From the NCBI GenBank assembly GCA_964619325.1, contig CAZUEL010000001.1:10168-61557 (forward strand): DNA of 51,390 nt, given 5' to 3'. The translations under genes and the position numbers were made by a program. Under the pieces are notes generated by a model. The model was not told the DNA's origin and did not search any database. It saw only the letters and a program-made list of their open reading frames with translations. Origin of the DNA: Candidatus Woesearchaeota archaeon. Lineage in GTDB: Archaea; Nanobdellota; Nanobdellia; UBA10117. This document shows, piece after piece, positions 4,408-50,354 of the stretch. The first letter of the stretch is position 1; each line of letters starts with the position of its first letter.

Positions 4408-6333
4408 CTAAACTTTCTTCTCAATCTCGTCCTTAACTTGATTTACAAAAGCATCAAGCTTAATTCCGAATTGCACCCTTGCAGTCCCCCGCTTCCTGAC
4501 AGCAACCGTTCCTCTCTCCTCTTCCTTATCACCAATAACTAAAATGTACGGCACTTTTTCCAGCTCGGCTGCGCGGACTTTATATTCAACGGTGTTGTTT
4601 GAATAATCTGCTTCCACACGCACGCTGGCATTAAATAATTCCTTCTCAACCTTCTGGCAGGCCGGAATATTTCTGTCAGTAAATGATAGGACCTTCGCTT
4701 GCACGGGAGCAAGCCACAGGGGGAAAGCGCCGGCATAGTTCTCGATCAAAATACCAATAAATCTTTCAAGTGAGCCATATATTACTCTGTGAACTACCAC
4801 CGGAGTCCGCTCTTTATTTTCTTTGTCAACATATTTTAGGTTAAACCGCTTTGGCTGCTGGAAATCAAGCTGCGCCGTGCCCATCTGCCACTCGCGGCCA
4901 ATCGCATCGGTCATCAATATATCTATCTTTGGCCCATAGAATGCGCCATCGCCTTCGGCTATCGAGTAATTGCCCTTGCCAGCACGCTTTTCCAGTATTC
5001 TTTTTAGCGCTGCCTCTGCGTCATTCCAAGTCTTAACATCACCCATAAACTTCTCAGGTCTCGTGCCTAACCTGAGTTTGTATTTCATGCCAAAAATTCC
5101 GTAAAATAATTCGGCAATTTCAAAAATATTATCATATTCCTGCTCTATCTGGTCTTCAGAAATAAAATTGTGTGAGTCGTCCTGCCTAAATTCGCGAACT
5201 CTTAGTAATCCATTCAACGCACCAGAGGCCTCATACCTATGCAAGATATCCGTATCCGAAAATCTTAACGGCAGCTCCCTGTAACTCCTTGCCTTGCTGC
5301 CAAAAACTATCATCGCGTTTGGGCAGTTCATCGCTTTTACGCCGTAAATTTCATTCTTGCCCAAATCCGCAATAAACATATCGTTGCGATAATGCTCCCA
5401 GTGGCCCGATTTTTCCCAGAGCTCTTTTTTATTTATCAGCGGCGTTGATATCTCCTTATAGCCGCGCTTAGCGTGCTCCTGCCTCCAGAAATTTATCAGC
5501 TCGTTGAGAATTACCATTCCCTTTGGCAACCAATACGGCATGCCTGGCGCGGTCTCGTGGAACATGAACAGCTCATGCCTCGGCCCAAGTATTCTGTGAT
5601 TGCGCTTCTCTGCTTCCTCACGAAGTTTCAAAAAGTTATCCAGCTCTTTCTGGCTCGGGAAAGAAATTCCGTAAATCCTTTGCAGCTGGCCCTTGTTTGA
5701 ATCGCCGCGCCAGTACGCGCCTGCGATTGATAAAAGTTTTACAACTCCAATTTGCCCAGTGTTCTGAACTACCGGATTATTGCACAAATCATAAAAATTT
5801 CCGTGCTTGTGGAAACTGACTTTATCTTCCTTAACATCATTCTTCAAAATGTCTAATTTAAATTGTTCCTTCGCTAATAATTTTTCTGCCTCCTTGCGCG
5901 AGAGGAAGACGTGCTCATACTTTGAATCGTCTTTGATTATTTTTTTCATCACGTCTTCAATTTTTTTCAAATCGGCTTCGGCAAATGGCTCTTTCTTGTC
6001 AAAGTCGTAGTAGAAACCATCATCTATAGCAGGCCCGATTCCTAACTTGGTGTCAGGCCACAATCTTTTGACAGCATCCGCAAGAATGTGCGAGCTGGAG
6101 TGCCAGTAGGCCAGCTTTCCTTCCGCGTCCGCGAACTTCAAAATCTTGATTGTTGCATCTTCGTTGATTGGGTCTGGCAGGTCTTGGAGCTTATCGTTGA
6201 CTTTTATTGCTAACGCCTCCTTCAAAAGCTTCTGGGAGATTTGTTTTGCTATCTCAAGGCCGGTGATGCCTTTTGGATATTCTTTACTAGTGCCATCGGG
6301 GAAAGTGAGTTTTATTTTAGCTGCCTTAGCCAT
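4408..6333 (-). CDS. thrS: Threonyl-tRNA synthetase
   Basis: 641 aa. N-terminal TGS-like segment, editing-domain HSSSHILA motif, class II core (FRQDDSH, GAFYGPKID) and C-terminal anticodon-binding domain. TATA TTTTAAATA lies about 26 nt upstream of the ATG. Confidence 0.95.
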   Translation of the reverse strand: MAKAAKIKLTFPDGTSKEYPKGITGLEIAKQISQKLLKEALAIKVNDKLQDLPDPINEDATIKILKFADAEGKLAYWHSSSHILADAVKRLWPDTKLGIGPAIDDGFYYDFDKKEPFAEADLKKIEDVMKKIIKDDSKYEHVFLSRKEAEKLLAKEQFKLDILKNDVKEDKVSFHKHGNFYDLCNNPVVQNTGQIGVVKLLSIAGAYWRGDSNKGQLQRIYGISFPSQKELDNFLKLREEAEKRNHRILGPRHELFMFHETAPGMPYWLPKGMVILNELINFWRQEHAKRGYKEISTPLINKKELWEKSGHWEHYRNDMFIADLGKNEIYGVKAMNCPNAMIVFGSKARSYRELPLRFSDTDILHRYEASGALNGLLRVREFRQDDSHNFISEDQIEQEYDNIFEIAELFYGIFGMKYKLRLGTRPEKFMGDVKTWNDAEAALKRILEKRAGKGNYSIAEGDGAFYGPKIDILMTDAIGREWQMGTAQLDFQQPKRFNLKYVDKENKERTPVVVHRVIYGSLERFIGILIENYAGAFPLWLAPVQAKVLSFTDRNIPACQKVEKELFNASVRVEADYSNNTVEYKVRAAELEKVPYILVIGDKEEERGTVAVRKRGTARVQFGIKLDAFVNQVKDEIEKKV

Positions 6334-7011: not shown

Positions 7012-7080
7012 TCGCAAAGCACGGTGCTTTGCGACGCAAGCTGAGCACAGCTCAGCTGCGCCTCGCCCGCGGAGGCGGGC
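7012..7080 (+). promoter_or_regulatory. Three consecutive hairpins/palindromes in the leader of the wHTH gene
   Basis: 7012-7034 TCGCAAAGCAC-G-GTGCTTTGCGA. 7036-7059 GCAAGCTGAGC-ACA-GCTCAGCTGC (one bulged A). 7065-7080 GCCCGC-GGAG-GCGGGC. The cluster ends 6 nt before the ATG at 7087. TATA-like TTTAAATA at about 6950-6957. Confidence 0.6.
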
Positions 7081-7086
7081 TCTGGT

Positions 7087-26574: not shown

Positions 26575-27201
26575 TTATTGTGTGTTTGTTTCATTTTTTG
26601 ACATTTGTTTTTCGCGCAGTCCCTTCCAAATCCACCATACTATAAAAATAACAATGCCAGCGATTACAACATACTGAAATTTGTCAAACGCGCCAATGAT
26701 AGATTGCCAGCCAGCACCCAATCTGAAGCCAATATAAACCAAAAATAAGGTCCAGGGGATGATTCCGAGCAAGCTATACAGCACGAACTTCGAAAAGTTC
26801 ATGCGTGCAATTCCGGCAGGCAGCGATATCACAGTTCGGACAACTGGCAGGAGCCGCGAGAAAAATATCACGAACTCGCCGTGCTGGTTAAACCACCGCT
26901 CCGAGTGCTCAAAATGCTTGTGATTTAGGAAAAAGTATTTTCCATAGTTTAGCACAAACGGCCTGCCGCCGTATTTTCCTATCGCGTACGCTACCATCGA
27001 GCCGAACAGTTGGCCAATAGTCGTTGCAACAACAACCGCCCAGAAGTTCAACTTGCCAAGATAGGCAAGATAGCCCGCAAACGGCAGCACAATTTCAGAA
27101 GGAATTGGAAGTAGCGCGGATTCACCGGCAATAAGCCAGAACAAGCCTGTGTACCCCATGCTGGCAATCAAATTTACTATCGAAGAAGCCAGCTGTAACA
27201 T
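26575..27201 (-). CDS. DedA family membrane protein (second paralog)
   Basis: LLPIPSEIVLPFAGYL and FFSRLLPVVRTVISLPAG. Start moved to ATG 27201, which lies about 26 nt from the TATA TTTATAA at 27225-27231. The track start is a TTG at 27219. Confidence 0.8.
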   Translation of the reverse strand: MLQLASSIVNLIASMGYTGLFWLIAGESALLPIPSEIVLPFAGYLAYLGKLNFWAVVVATTIGQLFGSMVAYAIGKYGGRPFVLNYGKYFFLNHKHFEHSERWFNQHGEFVIFFSRLLPVVRTVISLPAGIARMNFSKFVLYSLLGIIPWTLFLVYIGFRLGAGWQSIIGAFDKFQYVVIAGIVIFIVWWIWKGLREKQMSKNETNTQ

Positions 27202-27260
27202 GGTGGTGTGTTTAATCAATATCTTTATAAATCCACCATTTCAGCCCCTCTTATGATACA

Positions 27261-27380
27261 ATCTGAACAACCAAGCGAACAAAGTTCGCTGGATCCAGAA
27301 AATTGCAAACAATTTTCTCGGAGTTCAGATGTGCATCAAAATCCCGGGGGATTTTGATTGTAAAGCGAACAAGGTTCGCT
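27261..27380 (+). promoter_or_regulatory. Structured leader: closing stem plus two hairpins (three-way junction) followed by two more hairpins
   Basis: Closing stem ATCTGAAC (27261-27268) / GTTCAGAT (27323-27330). Hairpins 27271-27292 CCAAGCGAAC-AAA-GTTCGCTGG, 27294-27322 (AGAAAATTG...CAATTTTCT), 27335-27358 (ATCAAAATCC-CGGG-GGATTTTGAT) and 27364-27380 AGCGAAC-AAG-GTTCGCT. Confidence 0.6.
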
Positions 27381-27394
27381 AATCATTTCACGAA

Positions 27395-27550
27395 ATGAAA
27401 ACCTGTACCTCATGCAAATCAGACATCACCAATGATAGAGAGGGTACTGGCTTTGCCTGCCCTGCCTGTTCAGAATCAGTTGTAAGATGCGGGCACTGCC
27501 GCAAGACAGGCGCACCATACAAATGTAAGTGCGGATTCGAGGGACCATAG
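27395..27550 (+). CDS. Small zinc-ribbon protein (COG2888-like, commonly next to aEF-1beta)
   Basis: 51 aa, hand-translated: MKTCTSCKSD...FACPACSESVVRCGHCRKTGAPYKCKCGFEGP, with four CxxC-type pairs. Below the ORF-track size cutoff. Confidence 0.7.
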   Translation: MKTCTSCKSDITNDREGTGFACPACSESVVRCGHCRKTGAPYKCKCGFEGP

Positions 27551-27618
27551 TTTCATGCAAACTAAAATTTTAGCCGTTCGTTTAATTTTAGTTGCACCTC
27601 GCCACGGAGGTGGCTCTG

Positions 27619-27894
27619 GTGGCTGAAGTTATAATCAAATTGAGAGTTATGCCAGTTTCACCGGAGTCAGATTTAGCTAAGATAGAGCAATTCTGCCGCG
27701 AGAAGATCGCCGCTGCGGGTGGCAAGCTGCACTCCATCGTCCCAGAGGAGATGGCGTTTGGGCTGAAATCACTTACGTTCACGTTCTTCGGGGATGAGAA
27801 AACGTTGAACCCGGATAAAATAGAGGAAGCGATAAAAACAGATAATCATGTTTCTTCAACTGAAGTGGTTGATGTCAGGCGGGCCCTGGGTTAA
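27619..27894 (+). CDS. Translation elongation factor aEF-1 beta
   Basis: AEVIIKLRVMPVSPESDL...EEMAFGLKSLTFTF...VDVRRA matches the archaeal EF-1beta pattern. I prefer the GTG start at 27619, preceded by GGAGG. The track start is a TTG at 27592. Confidence 0.85.
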   Translation: MAEVIIKLRVMPVSPESDLAKIEQFCREKIAAAGGKLHSIVPEEMAFGLKSLTFTFFGDEKTLNPDKIEEAIKTDNHVSSTEVVDVRRALG

Positions 27895-48931: not shown

Positions 48932-50218
48932 TTATGTGTGCGCAACACTTGCAATCTCGTGGTCAACTTTTCTAAGCAGTGTTTTGATTCTCTCTTGCAG
49001 CGCAATCTCTTTACCCAAAAAGTTGGCTGCTTTTTCCAACGCGGTAATTACTGTAGTGCGTACACCTGCCGTCCAGCCGCCTTGGTTTATTGCTACCCCA
49101 AGATTCTCGTATGCTGCAGTTAGATCTGCAAAGACTGCCTGCTCGTCTGTGGCCTGCTGGCCCGCGAGCTGCTCTATCTCTTGCAGTTCTGAATCTACTT
49201 GGCCATACACATGTCTATATGTGACCGCCATACCTGTAGTGGGCACGGACTTAAATACATTCAACTCGTGTCCTATTCGCGCCATCAAATCGCCCCTGAA
49301 GCGCCTCGCCATCTTCCACTTAGCAAATACTATGCGCAAGGTGCTATACGCGAGCCTCGCCGTAGCTAGCACGCCAGATGCGGGAGCCCATGTTCCTGTT
49401 GCAGGTATTTTCTTGGCTAAACTAACTGCCTTTCGGACATAAGTTGTAGCACTTTCGGTATCACCTAACTCTGACTGTATGTCTCTAAACGCACCACCGA
49501 GGTCATGCAACGCCTCTACTGAGAGATTTTCAGACAGTTTACCAAGCACCCTTGCCCGCGTGCGCCTGAATATAAGTGCTAAACCGATTGCAATTAATGG
49601 TATTCCAAGCCAGACGGTTCCAAAAAATGTTTCTGTGCCAGCACTTACGCCACCAATGCTATAAAAGGTTGGCAAAACCACTACTGAGATAACTCCGGCA
49701 AGAATGAATCCAATGCCTCGCCATCTCCAATTCCACGGCGGATCGTTCCCTGAAAGTTTCCACGACATTGCTATTACCGTAATTGGGACTGCATACGTTA
49801 TTGCGAGACTAATTGCGGTTCCGACTGATGTTGCTAGGTATAATATTGGCGCGGATGGAACGTACCTCATCGCAAAGATTGCCAGCACAAACGCGACCAA
49901 CCCTGCTGCGCCTTTGTTCTCTTTCAAAAAATCTATCCGCAAGACTAACAAAGCAAACAACGTTACTAACAGCGTCCAAATTAAAAATCTGAGCGGCAAA
50001 ACGGAAGATGGCTCGGCAGGATTATAGCCAACCAACAGCTGCATTGCCGGGACGATATACGCAGATAAATCTGGGAACGGTGGAAGATTTATTGGTGCTG
50101 GTTGCTCTAACTCTACAGCAAGTGTTGCAACGGCAGAACTCGCTAATCCAAGCGCGGCTAAGCCAGATGTTTTTATGAAATCTTTTAAGGCCATTTTGTT
50201 TTTGCAACGCGAAAACAA
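48932..50218 (-). CDS. Membrane protein with C-terminal helical cytoplasmic domain
   Basis: 428 aa. N-terminal half has about 6-7 hydrophobic helices. C-terminal ~190 aa is helical and charged. Preceded by a hairpin-rich leader. Confidence 0.55.
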   Translation of the reverse strand: MFSRCKNKMALKDFIKTSGLAALGLASSAVATLAVELEQPAPINLPPFPDLSAYIVPAMQLLVGYNPAEPSSVLPLRFLIWTLLVTLFALLVLRIDFLKENKGAAGLVAFVLAIFAMRYVPSAPILYLATSVGTAISLAITYAVPITVIAMSWKLSGNDPPWNWRWRGIGFILAGVISVVVLPTFYSIGGVSAGTETFFGTVWLGIPLIAIGLALIFRRTRARVLGKLSENLSVEALHDLGGAFRDIQSELGDTESATTYVRKAVSLAKKIPATGTWAPASGVLATARLAYSTLRIVFAKWKMARRFRGDLMARIGHELNVFKSVPTTGMAVTYRHVYGQVDSELQEIEQLAGQQATDEQAVFADLTAAYENLGVAINQGGWTAGVRTTVITALEKAANFLGKEIALQERIKTLLRKVDHEIASVAHT

Positions 50219-50222
50219 ACGC

Positions 50223-50291
50223 TAGAAAATTGCTCTGCAATTTTCTGCGCGCAGCCGAACTTAGTTCAGCTTGCGACCCGCAAACAAGCGG
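50223..50291 (-). promoter_or_regulatory. Three consecutive hairpins in the putative leader of gene 48932..50218
   Basis: 50223-50245 AGAAAATTGC-TCT-GCAATTTTCT. 50250-50273 reads on the minus strand as GCAAGCTGAAC-TAA-GTTCGGCTGC. 50274-50291 ACCCGC-AAACAA-GCGGGT. Confidence 0.55.
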
Positions 50292-50336
50292 GTGAAGTTT
50301 GCGTTGTCTTACACTCCAACTCTCCAGATAAGAGCG

Positions 50337-50354
50337 GGCGGTATTTAAATGTTT
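50337..50354. promoter_or_regulatory. TATA-containing motif GCGGTATTTAAATGTTTG (copy of 46017-46033)
   Basis: Same string as at 46017-46033 apart from one inserted T. Palindromic ATTTAAAT core. Confidence 0.5.

Follow-up and report, generated by a model that had tools for sequence, protein, structure and literature searches.

Between two divergent genes of a DPANN-type archaeon, a block of stable hairpins stands in front of an operon that encodes a small zinc-finger protein and the translation factor aEF-1beta. The question raised by this locus is whether the block is an RNA leader that serves the operon. The earlier note, made from the sequence, had suggested autoregulation by the operon or a shared cis-regulator. 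Coordinates given below refer to the window, the whole stretch of 51,390 nt that was analysed. The host genome measures 0.78 Mb in 51 contigs, is 92% complete and has a G+C content of 45.8%.

Positions 27221-27394 make up the entire spacer that separates the DedA/VTT-domain gene on the minus strand from the gene of the HVO_2753-like protein (Zn-ribbon gene) on the plus strand (Table 1). The palindromic TATA box lies 22 nt from the ATG of the DedA/VTT gene (27201-27199, minus strand) and 21 nt from a plus-strand ATG at 27253. Because the box is palindromic and its spacing to the two ATGs is nearly equal, it probably works in both directions. The near-symmetric spacing (22 and 21 nt) is also present in the relatives of genus g9 (G008, G014 and G016). 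The start codon of the aEF-1beta gene is probably GTG 27619. In most relatives the Zn-ribbon and aEF-1beta genes directly abut, unlike in the genome studied here, where they are separated by 68 nt. This short spacer contains a 10-bp hairpin and a second hairpin, GCCAC-ggag-GTGGC, which covers the Shine-Dalgarno-like sequence GGAGGTGG.

Table 1. Features of the locus and further element copies in the window (DHE, double-hairpin element; R1, covariance model described in the text)
Feature	Position	Strand	Basis
DedA/VTT-domain membrane protein gene	26575..27201	-	Pfam PF09335 VTT_dom, E = 1.5e-29
Palindromic TATA box TTTATAAA	27224..27231		sequence; box and spacing alignable in G008, G014, G016
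Upstream ATGA copy, ancestral leaderless start position	27253..27256	+	aligned with the start ATG of relatives
Predicted 34-codon upstream ORF through the hairpins, from ATG 27253	27253..27357	+	ORF list
Putative outer DHE	27257..27360		alignment and blast to C34; same fold
8-bp closing stem ATCTGAAC with GTTCAGAT	27261-27268 with 27323-27330		sequence
Inner DHE, in the loop of outer hairpin 1	27270..27322		strict shape scan and model R1
Hairpin CC-a-AGCGAAC aaa GTTCGCT-GG	27271-27292		sequence
Hairpin TCC-AGAAAATTG caaa CAATTTTCT-c-GGA	27294-27322		sequence
10-bp GC-clamped hairpin ATCAAAATCC cggg GGATTTTGAT	27335-27358		sequence
Solo-hairpin module TAAAGCGAAC aag GTTCGCTAAT (27361-27383) with tail catttcacgaa	27361..27394		pattern family
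Second AGCGAAC-aag-GTTCGCT copy	27364-27380		sequence
HVO_2753-like small zinc-finger protein gene, 51 aa	27395..27550	+	Pfam PF07754, E = 6.8e-10
Zn-ribbon/aEF-1beta spacer, 68 nt, hairpin-rich	27551..27618	+	sequence and folds
aEF-1beta gene	27619..27894	+	Pfam PF00736 EF1_GNE, E = 1.5e-13
Third DHE copy in the window	7035..7085		R1 29-30 bits, E about 2e-6; inverted-repeat listing
DHE copy at a pilus-like locus, in the leader of its first gene	50220..50275		R1 48-49 bits, E about 2e-11

Results

Folding of the block

The TATA box, stems and hairpins that the earlier note had listed are all present in the sequence, and folding of 27250-27397 as RNA reproduced the described arrangement of a three-way junction followed by two hairpins. 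The minimum free energy (MFE) of this segment was -53.1 kcal/mol, compared with -27.8 +/- 3.4 kcal/mol for shuffled sequences (z = -7.4; none of 200 shuffles was as good). The opposite strand of the same segment reached an MFE of -52.2 (z = -6.6). That both strands fold nearly equally well was the first hint that the block is palindromic DNA rather than a strand-specific RNA. A short hairpin had also been proposed to overlap the ATG. A 5-bp A/U-rich pairing does exist there, but it is indistinguishable from chance. In the MFE structure the main AUG is unpaired, and it is not preceded by a Shine-Dalgarno-like sequence.

The palindrome AGCGAAC-N3-GTTCGCT has two exact matches, where 0.18 would be expected. 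The half-site AGCGAAC alone is not enriched (7 matches against 7.2 expected), which places the signal in the hairpins and not in the word. A search of Rfam 15 gave no match, either for the whole window at gathering scores or for 27150-27700 at E <= 1. No tRNA was found by a tRNA scan of the window, thus the leader hairpins are not part of a tRNA or of its intron. A scan for sigma-70 promoters and terminators is uninformative for an archaeon; its one terminator-like match was the AGCGAAC hairpin itself.

The site in related genomes

Orthologues of the Zn-ribbon gene were found in 55 of 61 genomes, and the aEF-1beta gene followed in 30 of 30 loci. In all 29 relatives compared, which belong to other genera only, a TATA-like box begins 26-32 nt upstream of the Zn-ribbon ATG, a distance that argues for leaderless mRNA; the genome studied here is the sole exception. 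About 140 bases of extra sequence are present at this site in our genome and in none of the 29 relatives. Likewise, the divergent gene and the Zn-ribbon ATG stand about 30-51 bp apart in close relatives and 193 bp apart here. When the orthologous spacers were compared, the pairings of the block were not conserved. The earlier note had named a lack of the pairings in relatives as the observation that would speak against its reading, and this is what the comparison revealed.

The promoter of the closest relatives, those of genus g9 (AATCAATATCTTTATAAATCCA..), can be aligned with our sequence, and their start ATG matches, column for column, the ATG at 27253. The tetranucleotide ATGA at 27253-27256 is repeated at 27395-27398, where it forms the first four bases of the Zn-ribbon gene. 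Deletion of 27257-27398 would leave the TATA box, 21 nt and ATGAAAACCTGT, which is the layout of the relatives. The only TATA-like candidate inside the insert is TTGTAAAG at 27357-27364.

A probable nest of three modules

Most probably the block consists of small palindromic modules, apparently mobile and nested in three layers, which were inserted at the 5' end of a previously leaderless operon. Two of the layers are double-hairpin elements (DHEs). We define a DHE as two adjacent hairpins, 51-60 nt in all, of the form NNN-a-AG..CT-N'N'N' followed by NNN-AG..CT-t/c-N'N'N'. Hairpin 1 carries a bulged A on the 5' side; in hairpin 2, its mirror form, the bulge lies on the 3' side, hence a DHE looks alike on both strands.

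The inner DHE comprises a bulged-A hairpin with the AGCGAAC stem and a hairpin with a 3'-side bulge and the AGAAAATTG stem. The covariance model R1, built from 20 other copies with the leader locus left out, recognized it on both strands with 34-35 bits (E about 1e-7).

The outer, putative DHE surrounds the inner one. Its hairpin 1 is TAC-a-ATCTGAAC...GTTCAGAT-GTG, with an interrupted loop, and its hairpin 2 is C-ATCAAAATCC cggg GGATTTTGAT-t-G. An intact DHE on contig C34 (about 4411-4464) consists of CAC-a-ATCTGAAC gaa GTTCAGAT-GTG and CAA-CAAAATTC ttt GAATTTTG-c-TTG. Since the closing stem recurs there as the stem of a family hairpin, the 'three-way junction' is probably an element within an element. 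Alignment of 27257-27362, less 27271-27321, with C34:4411-4464 gave identity at 44 of 55 positions (80%), a score that none of 2000 shuffles reached, and points to the 'GC-clamped hairpin' as hairpin 2 of the outer DHE. The changes between the two copies in hairpin 2 are compensated (ATCC/GGAT versus ATTC/GAAT). Model R1 matched hairpin 2 only (11.7 bits, E = 0.28), and the outer DHE fits the shape test only with two G-T wobbles allowed. Likeness to one intact copy, that on C34, suggests that 27257-27360 is a DHE interrupted by another.

The third layer is the solo-hairpin module, whose general form is TAAAGCGAA..TTCGCTAAT, with a conserved base and a variable top. The pattern has 6 copies in our genome and one or two in each of 7 of the 16 genomes of the same family, whereas the reversed control pattern had no match. 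A solo hairpin typically has a TATA-proximal ATG on one side and the real start codon of a gene on the other. Translation genes (the aEF-1beta operon, uS12 and a class I aaRS) follow three of the five strict pre-gene copies, which leaves some room for a co-opted role.

A blast search with the whole 179-nt block retrieved only pieces and no second copy of the composite. The block was put together at this site instead of arriving as one piece.

Distribution of DHEs

A genome search for AGAAAATTG-loop-CAATTTTCT with mismatches allowed found dozens of similar hairpins, the stem tops of which vary yet stay complementary. Perfect hairpins of at least 7 bp number 524 in the genome versus 229 in a shuffle. 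The strict DHE shape is represented by 27 units, 27271-27322 among them, and by none in the shuffled genome. RNAalifold applied to the 20 other copies (A1) recovered the two bulged hairpins, with double changes in 15 of 21 pairs, a count that is partly circular because the copies had been picked by a perfect-stem filter. In its own genome R1 gave 76 hits at about 38 loci. Matches were also found in 22 of 60 relatives, including 12 of the 16 within the same family, at none to about 37 loci per genome. The hairpin pair that the earlier note had described in the same order on the minus strand was confirmed and corresponds to the copy at the pilus-like locus (Table 1).

The copies are not confined to spacers. 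The 41 R1 intervals in the genome comprise 21 within open frames, 17 in intergenic DNA and 3 that overlap the end of an ORF. Several of the 21 are situated in large, real proteins of 385-882 aa and have lengths divisible by 3. Some of the DHE-bearing 'ORFs' are tRNA introns: ARAGORN predicted only 8 tRNAs in the genome, and one of them, tRNA-Gly(CCC) at C6:2420-2651, has a DHE within its intron of 139 nt.

When about 37 DHE loci were folded on both strands, only 15 G-U pairs were counted in total, the stems being almost purely Watson-Crick; these are too few for G-U asymmetry to be used in calling the transcribed strand. The scarcity of G-U pairs points to a palindrome constrained on both DNA strands and not to a typical functional RNA. 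R1 scores were likewise nearly equal on the two strands.

A filled and an empty site were found in related sequences. A metagenome scan yielded one contig, L067, which is of another lineage than our genome and is related to G009. Its promoter site is empty, and a precise 54-nt DHE occupies the spacer between the Zn-ribbon and aEF-1beta genes; the corresponding locus of G009 (L023) is without it. Both flanks can be aligned, and the pair displays no target duplication beyond a 1-nt ambiguity. In our genome R1 gave a weak match in the same spacer (27556-27619, 16 bits, E = 0.016). DHE matches within 1.5 kb of the Zn-ribbon gene were detected at 4 of the 29 loci of relatives (L008, L015, L019 and L021), all in non-homologous positions. 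It is the filled and empty sites, and not a mechanism, that suggest mobility of the DHEs. The 92%-complete genome gave no match to PF01797 (Y1/RAYT), to which control genomes do respond, and none to PF07282 (TnpB) or PF01609 (DDE_Tnp_1); a cognate transposase, as an IS200/IS605- or DDE-type MITE would require, was thus not found in it.

Duplications of start regions

Taken alone, the 4-nt ATGA repeat is unconvincing and could reflect chance or selection for a start codon. Start-region duplications recur elsewhere, which makes the pair more than a coincidence. On contig C9 (17571/17621) a solo hairpin is placed between perfect 11-nt copies of ATGCCTGAAGA, the first of which is 19 nt after a TATA box. 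Start-region duplications of 8 nt and 9 nt are present at C3:7588/7652 and C32:614/664, respectively. ATGA stands on both sides of an insert on C16, as does ATGACA in the relative G016, and a hairpin insert in G021 lies between copies of the aEF-1beta start that are at least 16 nt long. A genome scan for such repeats, 8 nt or longer and accompanied by a TATA box, yielded 6 cases; 30 word-swap controls averaged 1.3, with a maximum of 4.

These duplications may mean either that insertion beside a leaderless start is survivable only if the ATG is doubled, or that the solo module targets transcription starts. It is possible, though on balance doubtful, that the DPANN hairpin modules represent a new kind of transposase-less mobile DNA, of which the solo branch targets the transcription start and start codon of leaderless genes and duplicates 4-16 nt of their 5' end. 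If so, each insertion would add three things to a leaderless mRNA: a mini-ORF that is itself leaderless, a stable hairpin and a re-created start codon. This would amount to a ready-made heritable re-tuning of translation, repeatedly tolerated or exploited by host genes.

Proposed history of the insertions

The nested arrangement suggests the following history. The solo-hairpin module (27361-27394), probably the first insertion at this site, would have entered directly behind the start codon with duplication of ATGA, and by this duplication the new ATG at 27395 heads an intact Zn-ribbon gene. A DHE of 51-55 nt (27257-27360) would have followed, inserting between the old ATGA and the solo module. 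A second DHE (27270-27322) would then have entered the loop of hairpin 1 of the first, and through this insertion an ordinary hairpin stem would have become the 'closing stem' of a three-way junction. This order is likely and is deduced from the nesting alone.

The earlier note had predicted a transcription start site (TSS) near 27255. Such a start is plausible, as the TATA box precedes ATG 27253 by 21 nt and this ATG is aligned to the start of the relatives. If the old bidirectional promoter fires near 27253, the operon mRNA would begin at the AUG of 27253 or directly beside it and have a stably folded leader of about 142 nt. The upstream ORF that begins at 27253 ends with TGA 27355-27357, 37 nt before the real start codon, and may be translated. 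Before arrival of the DHEs, the stop codon of the upstream ORF (MIKRTRFANHFTK) would have been a UGA that shared bases with the main AUG. The same UGA/AUG overlap exists at the uS12 gene on C25, and on C16 the stop is located 1 nt before the ATG. By insertion of the 104-nt DHE pair this AUGA coupling was lost at the Zn-ribbon locus. Any effect of the block on expression is most probably a by-product of insertion and not a control device evolved for the operon.

Alternative explanations

Whatever their origin, the hairpin modules might have been co-opted as general cis-acting RNA elements, a possibility that we regard as unlikely. They could serve as 5' stabilisers against exonucleases or as a landing pad for one RNA-binding protein, or the solo hairpin TAAAGCGAA..TTCGCTAAT could, together with the leaderless upstream ORF, couple translation to the main ORF. 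Many intergenic copies are indeed situated in 5' regions between divergent starts, and the AUGA overlap reconstructed here and repeated at uS12 would suit such coupling, but the frame of the upstream ORF varies, the C9 hairpin is read in another frame that continues past the ATG, and at the Zn-ribbon locus the later insertion of 104 nt broke the coupling. Three of five strict solo hairpins precede translation genes, yet this proportion is not above expectation for a DPANN genome, which is rich in such genes. The two plus-strand G-U wobbles of the outer DHE become A-C mismatches on the minus strand, which speaks for an RNA function; across the family, however, pairing is just as good on either strand and G-U pairs are nearly absent, and copies in coding regions keep the frame. 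Finally, the element is absent at the Zn-ribbon gene of all 29 relatives. Of the shared cis-regulator suggested in the earlier note, the part that stands is that the hairpins belong to a repeated family; dedicated control does not agree with the lack of the pairings in 29 of 29 relatives.

An autoregulatory leader specific for the operon, whose three-way junction would be the binding site of aEF-1beta, of the Zn-finger protein or of a ribosomal component, is very improbable. It would account for the very stable fold and for its position ahead of a translation-factor operon. The same operon is nevertheless leaderless in 29 of 29 relatives, Rfam contains no match, and the same elements occur at about 38 unrelated places, among them coding regions, tRNA introns and spacers. 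The suggestion of autoregulation made in the earlier note was abandoned on these grounds.

There is next to no likelihood that a dimeric transcription factor controls the divergent promoter by using as operators the two identical AGCGAAC-N3-GTTCGCT palindromes, which lie 90 bp apart: they are perfect 7-3-7 palindromes, far in excess of expectation and located in a divergent promoter region, but both lie downstream of the TATA box and TSS within larger hairpin modules, they are absent from the promoters of relatives, and elsewhere the same stems carry loops of 3 to about 20 nt and show compensated changes, as hairpins do and fixed-spacing operators do not. Equally implausible is the reading of the block as an intron that the archaeal splicing endonuclease cuts out of the RNA to restore a leaderless mRNA; DHEs do reside inside long tRNA introns here, as in tRNA-Gly(CCC), and removal of 27257-27398 would restore AUGAAAACC at the 5' end, but the ATGA flanks cannot form a bulge-helix-bulge (by eye, the upstream cccctctt is without a complement after 27398), the helix that closes the block in the MFE structure is a plain one of 5 bp (AUGAU/AUCAU), and coding-region copies keep the frame, which would be needless if they were spliced out.

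Discussion

Insertion of nested mobile modules, the reading that we prefer, has consequences for annotation: stable multi-hairpin 'leaders' of DPANN genes should not be taken as riboswitch-like unless they are conserved at orthologous genes. The locus is a clean natural experiment: a predicted leader of 142 nt (-53 kcal/mol) with an upstream ORF now precedes a translation operon that is essential and normally leaderless, and the genes are still intact. This gain of a leader bears on the coexistence of leaderless and leadered initiation in archaea. The nesting of one element in the loop of another and the repeated duplications of start-codon regions are concrete clues to the mechanism of insertion.

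Comparison with known systems

The block resembles the autoregulatory leaders of ribosomal protein and translation factor genes, as well as riboswitch-like 5' UTRs, in that a stable multi-helix structure is placed between promoter and start codon. Autoregulatory leaders are conserved at orthologous genes and display covariation, whereas this block is missing from 29 of 29 relatives and is built of dispersed repeat modules.

Palindromic repeats that occur both within protein genes and between genes are known from bacteria as well. The Rickettsia palindromic elements (RPEs) of Ogata et al. 2000 reportedly insert in frame into protein genes and also between genes. RPEs are about 100-150 bp long and are found in the reduced genome of a host-dependent organism. 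DHEs share with them the dual location; the leader copy of the DHE differs in lying outside a coding region.

For the mitochondrial double-hairpin elements, we know of no reported bulge or AG...CT signature and of no nesting in each other's loops. These repetitive hairpin-forming elements of fungi and sponges are dispersed and, like DHEs, consist of two adjacent hairpins of about 50 nt; they insert between genes and in tolerant genic places, stay in transcripts, and are not known to depend on an enzyme or to serve an adaptive role (PMC2800124). DHEs are similarly dispersed in genes and spacers, but the mitochondrial elements reside in eukaryotic organelle genomes and are unrelated in sequence. 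A full-text search of a paper library found no paper linking double-hairpin repeats to DPANN or archaea.

REP, BIME and REPIN sequences are short hairpin repeats with tens of copies per genome, often arranged as pairs in opposite orientation; they are non-coding, lie mostly between genes and, when present in transcripts, can alter the fate of the mRNA as a by-product (PMC3116915, PMC3733652). REPINs, the closest analogue among bacteria, were stated to be undetected in archaea (10.1101/2021.07.10.451892), and the host of the DHEs is an archaeon. DHEs are likewise short hairpin-forming repeats with tens of copies per genome. They differ in the lack of a GTAG/CGTC tag, the DHE consensus (20 copies) starting with CCCAAG and ending with CTTGGG, and in the lack of a RAYT/Y1 transposase in their 92%-complete genome. 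Unlike the one long hairpin of a REPIN, the two hairpins of a DHE fold separately, each with a one-base bulge, and, in contrast to extragenic REPs, many DHE copies are situated in coding regions and tRNA introns.

Duplicated start regions and inserted elements

Leaderless genes gain leaders by a recurring route, a hairpin module combined with a duplication of the start region. At all the module loci listed in the table, perfect duplications on both sides of the module correspond to the first 4-16 nt of the gene. In the window, the palindromic TATA box, which is kept in relatives of genus g9, looks from its position to serve two leaderless genes transcribed in opposite directions.

The double-hairpin element (DHE) was found in filled and empty state. 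A metagenome contig related to G009 (L067) carries the element, which is missing from the otherwise alignable spacer of G009 itself (L023). Comparison of these two sequences revealed no target-site duplication at the 54-nt DHE.

Across about 37 loci of the archaeon's own genome (G000), copy-to-copy differences in the DHE stems are fully compensated, and G-U pairs are nearly missing (15 over both strands). The two arms change together, and one may have been copied from the other. The DHE at 50220-50275 shares the leader of the pilus-like locus with a GC hairpin and one further hairpin; the sense strand of the first gene is the only one on which this DHE has a G-U pair.

In most relatives the Zn-ribbon and aEF-1beta genes abut, the aEF-1beta match starting 33-47 nt past the end of the Zn-ribbon match. 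Different long inserts occupy this junction in several relatives (G014, G007, G005, G006, G009, G021). In the window one hairpin of the spacer, GCCAC-ggag-GTGGC, overlies the Shine-Dalgarno-like GGAGGTGG of aEF-1beta. The spacer matched R1, the covariance model built from 20 DHE copies, weakly (16 bits).

Features and their locations (C, contigs of G000; L, loci of relatives or metagenome contig)
Feature	Location	Strand	Remarks
Hairpin-rich Zn-ribbon/aEF-1beta spacer	window 27551-27618		68 nt
Divergent promoter region with a single palindromic TATA box (TTTATAAA)	window 27199-27256; L006-L008		box 21-22 nt away from the start codon of each divergent gene
Leader, first gene of pilus-like locus	window 50193-50350	minus	about 125 nt, TATA (about 50339-50347) to ATG (50193)
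DHE, precise	L067:290-345	minus	54 nt; vs L023:~1030
Hairpin module between TATA-proximal ATG and real start codon	C9:17571-17631		11-nt flanking duplication ATGCCTGAAGA
Same	C3:7588-7659
Same	C32:614-672
Same	C16:16314-16381
Same	L058 (G016)
Same	L028 (G021)
CCTTTCTTT-loop-AAAGAAAGG hairpin, example	C5:31187-31206
Same	C11:19002-19023
Same	C16:895-916
Same	C19:1741-1761
Same	C25:8199-8221
Same	C39:3593-3616

tRNA genes and their introns

ARAGORN, run on the whole of the 92%-complete genome, found only 8 tRNA genes. In several of these the introns measure 95-255 nt, and three calls of larger size were artefacts. Many tRNAs evidently escaped detection because their introns are long or multiple and bear hairpin modules. 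Hairpins built as CCTTTCTTT-loop-AAAGAAAGG, with GTAGAGCA/GGCTGTAC-like flanks, number about a dozen in the genome. They apparently lie within tRNA-like genes, and are a repeated kind of intron or hairpin distinct from the others.
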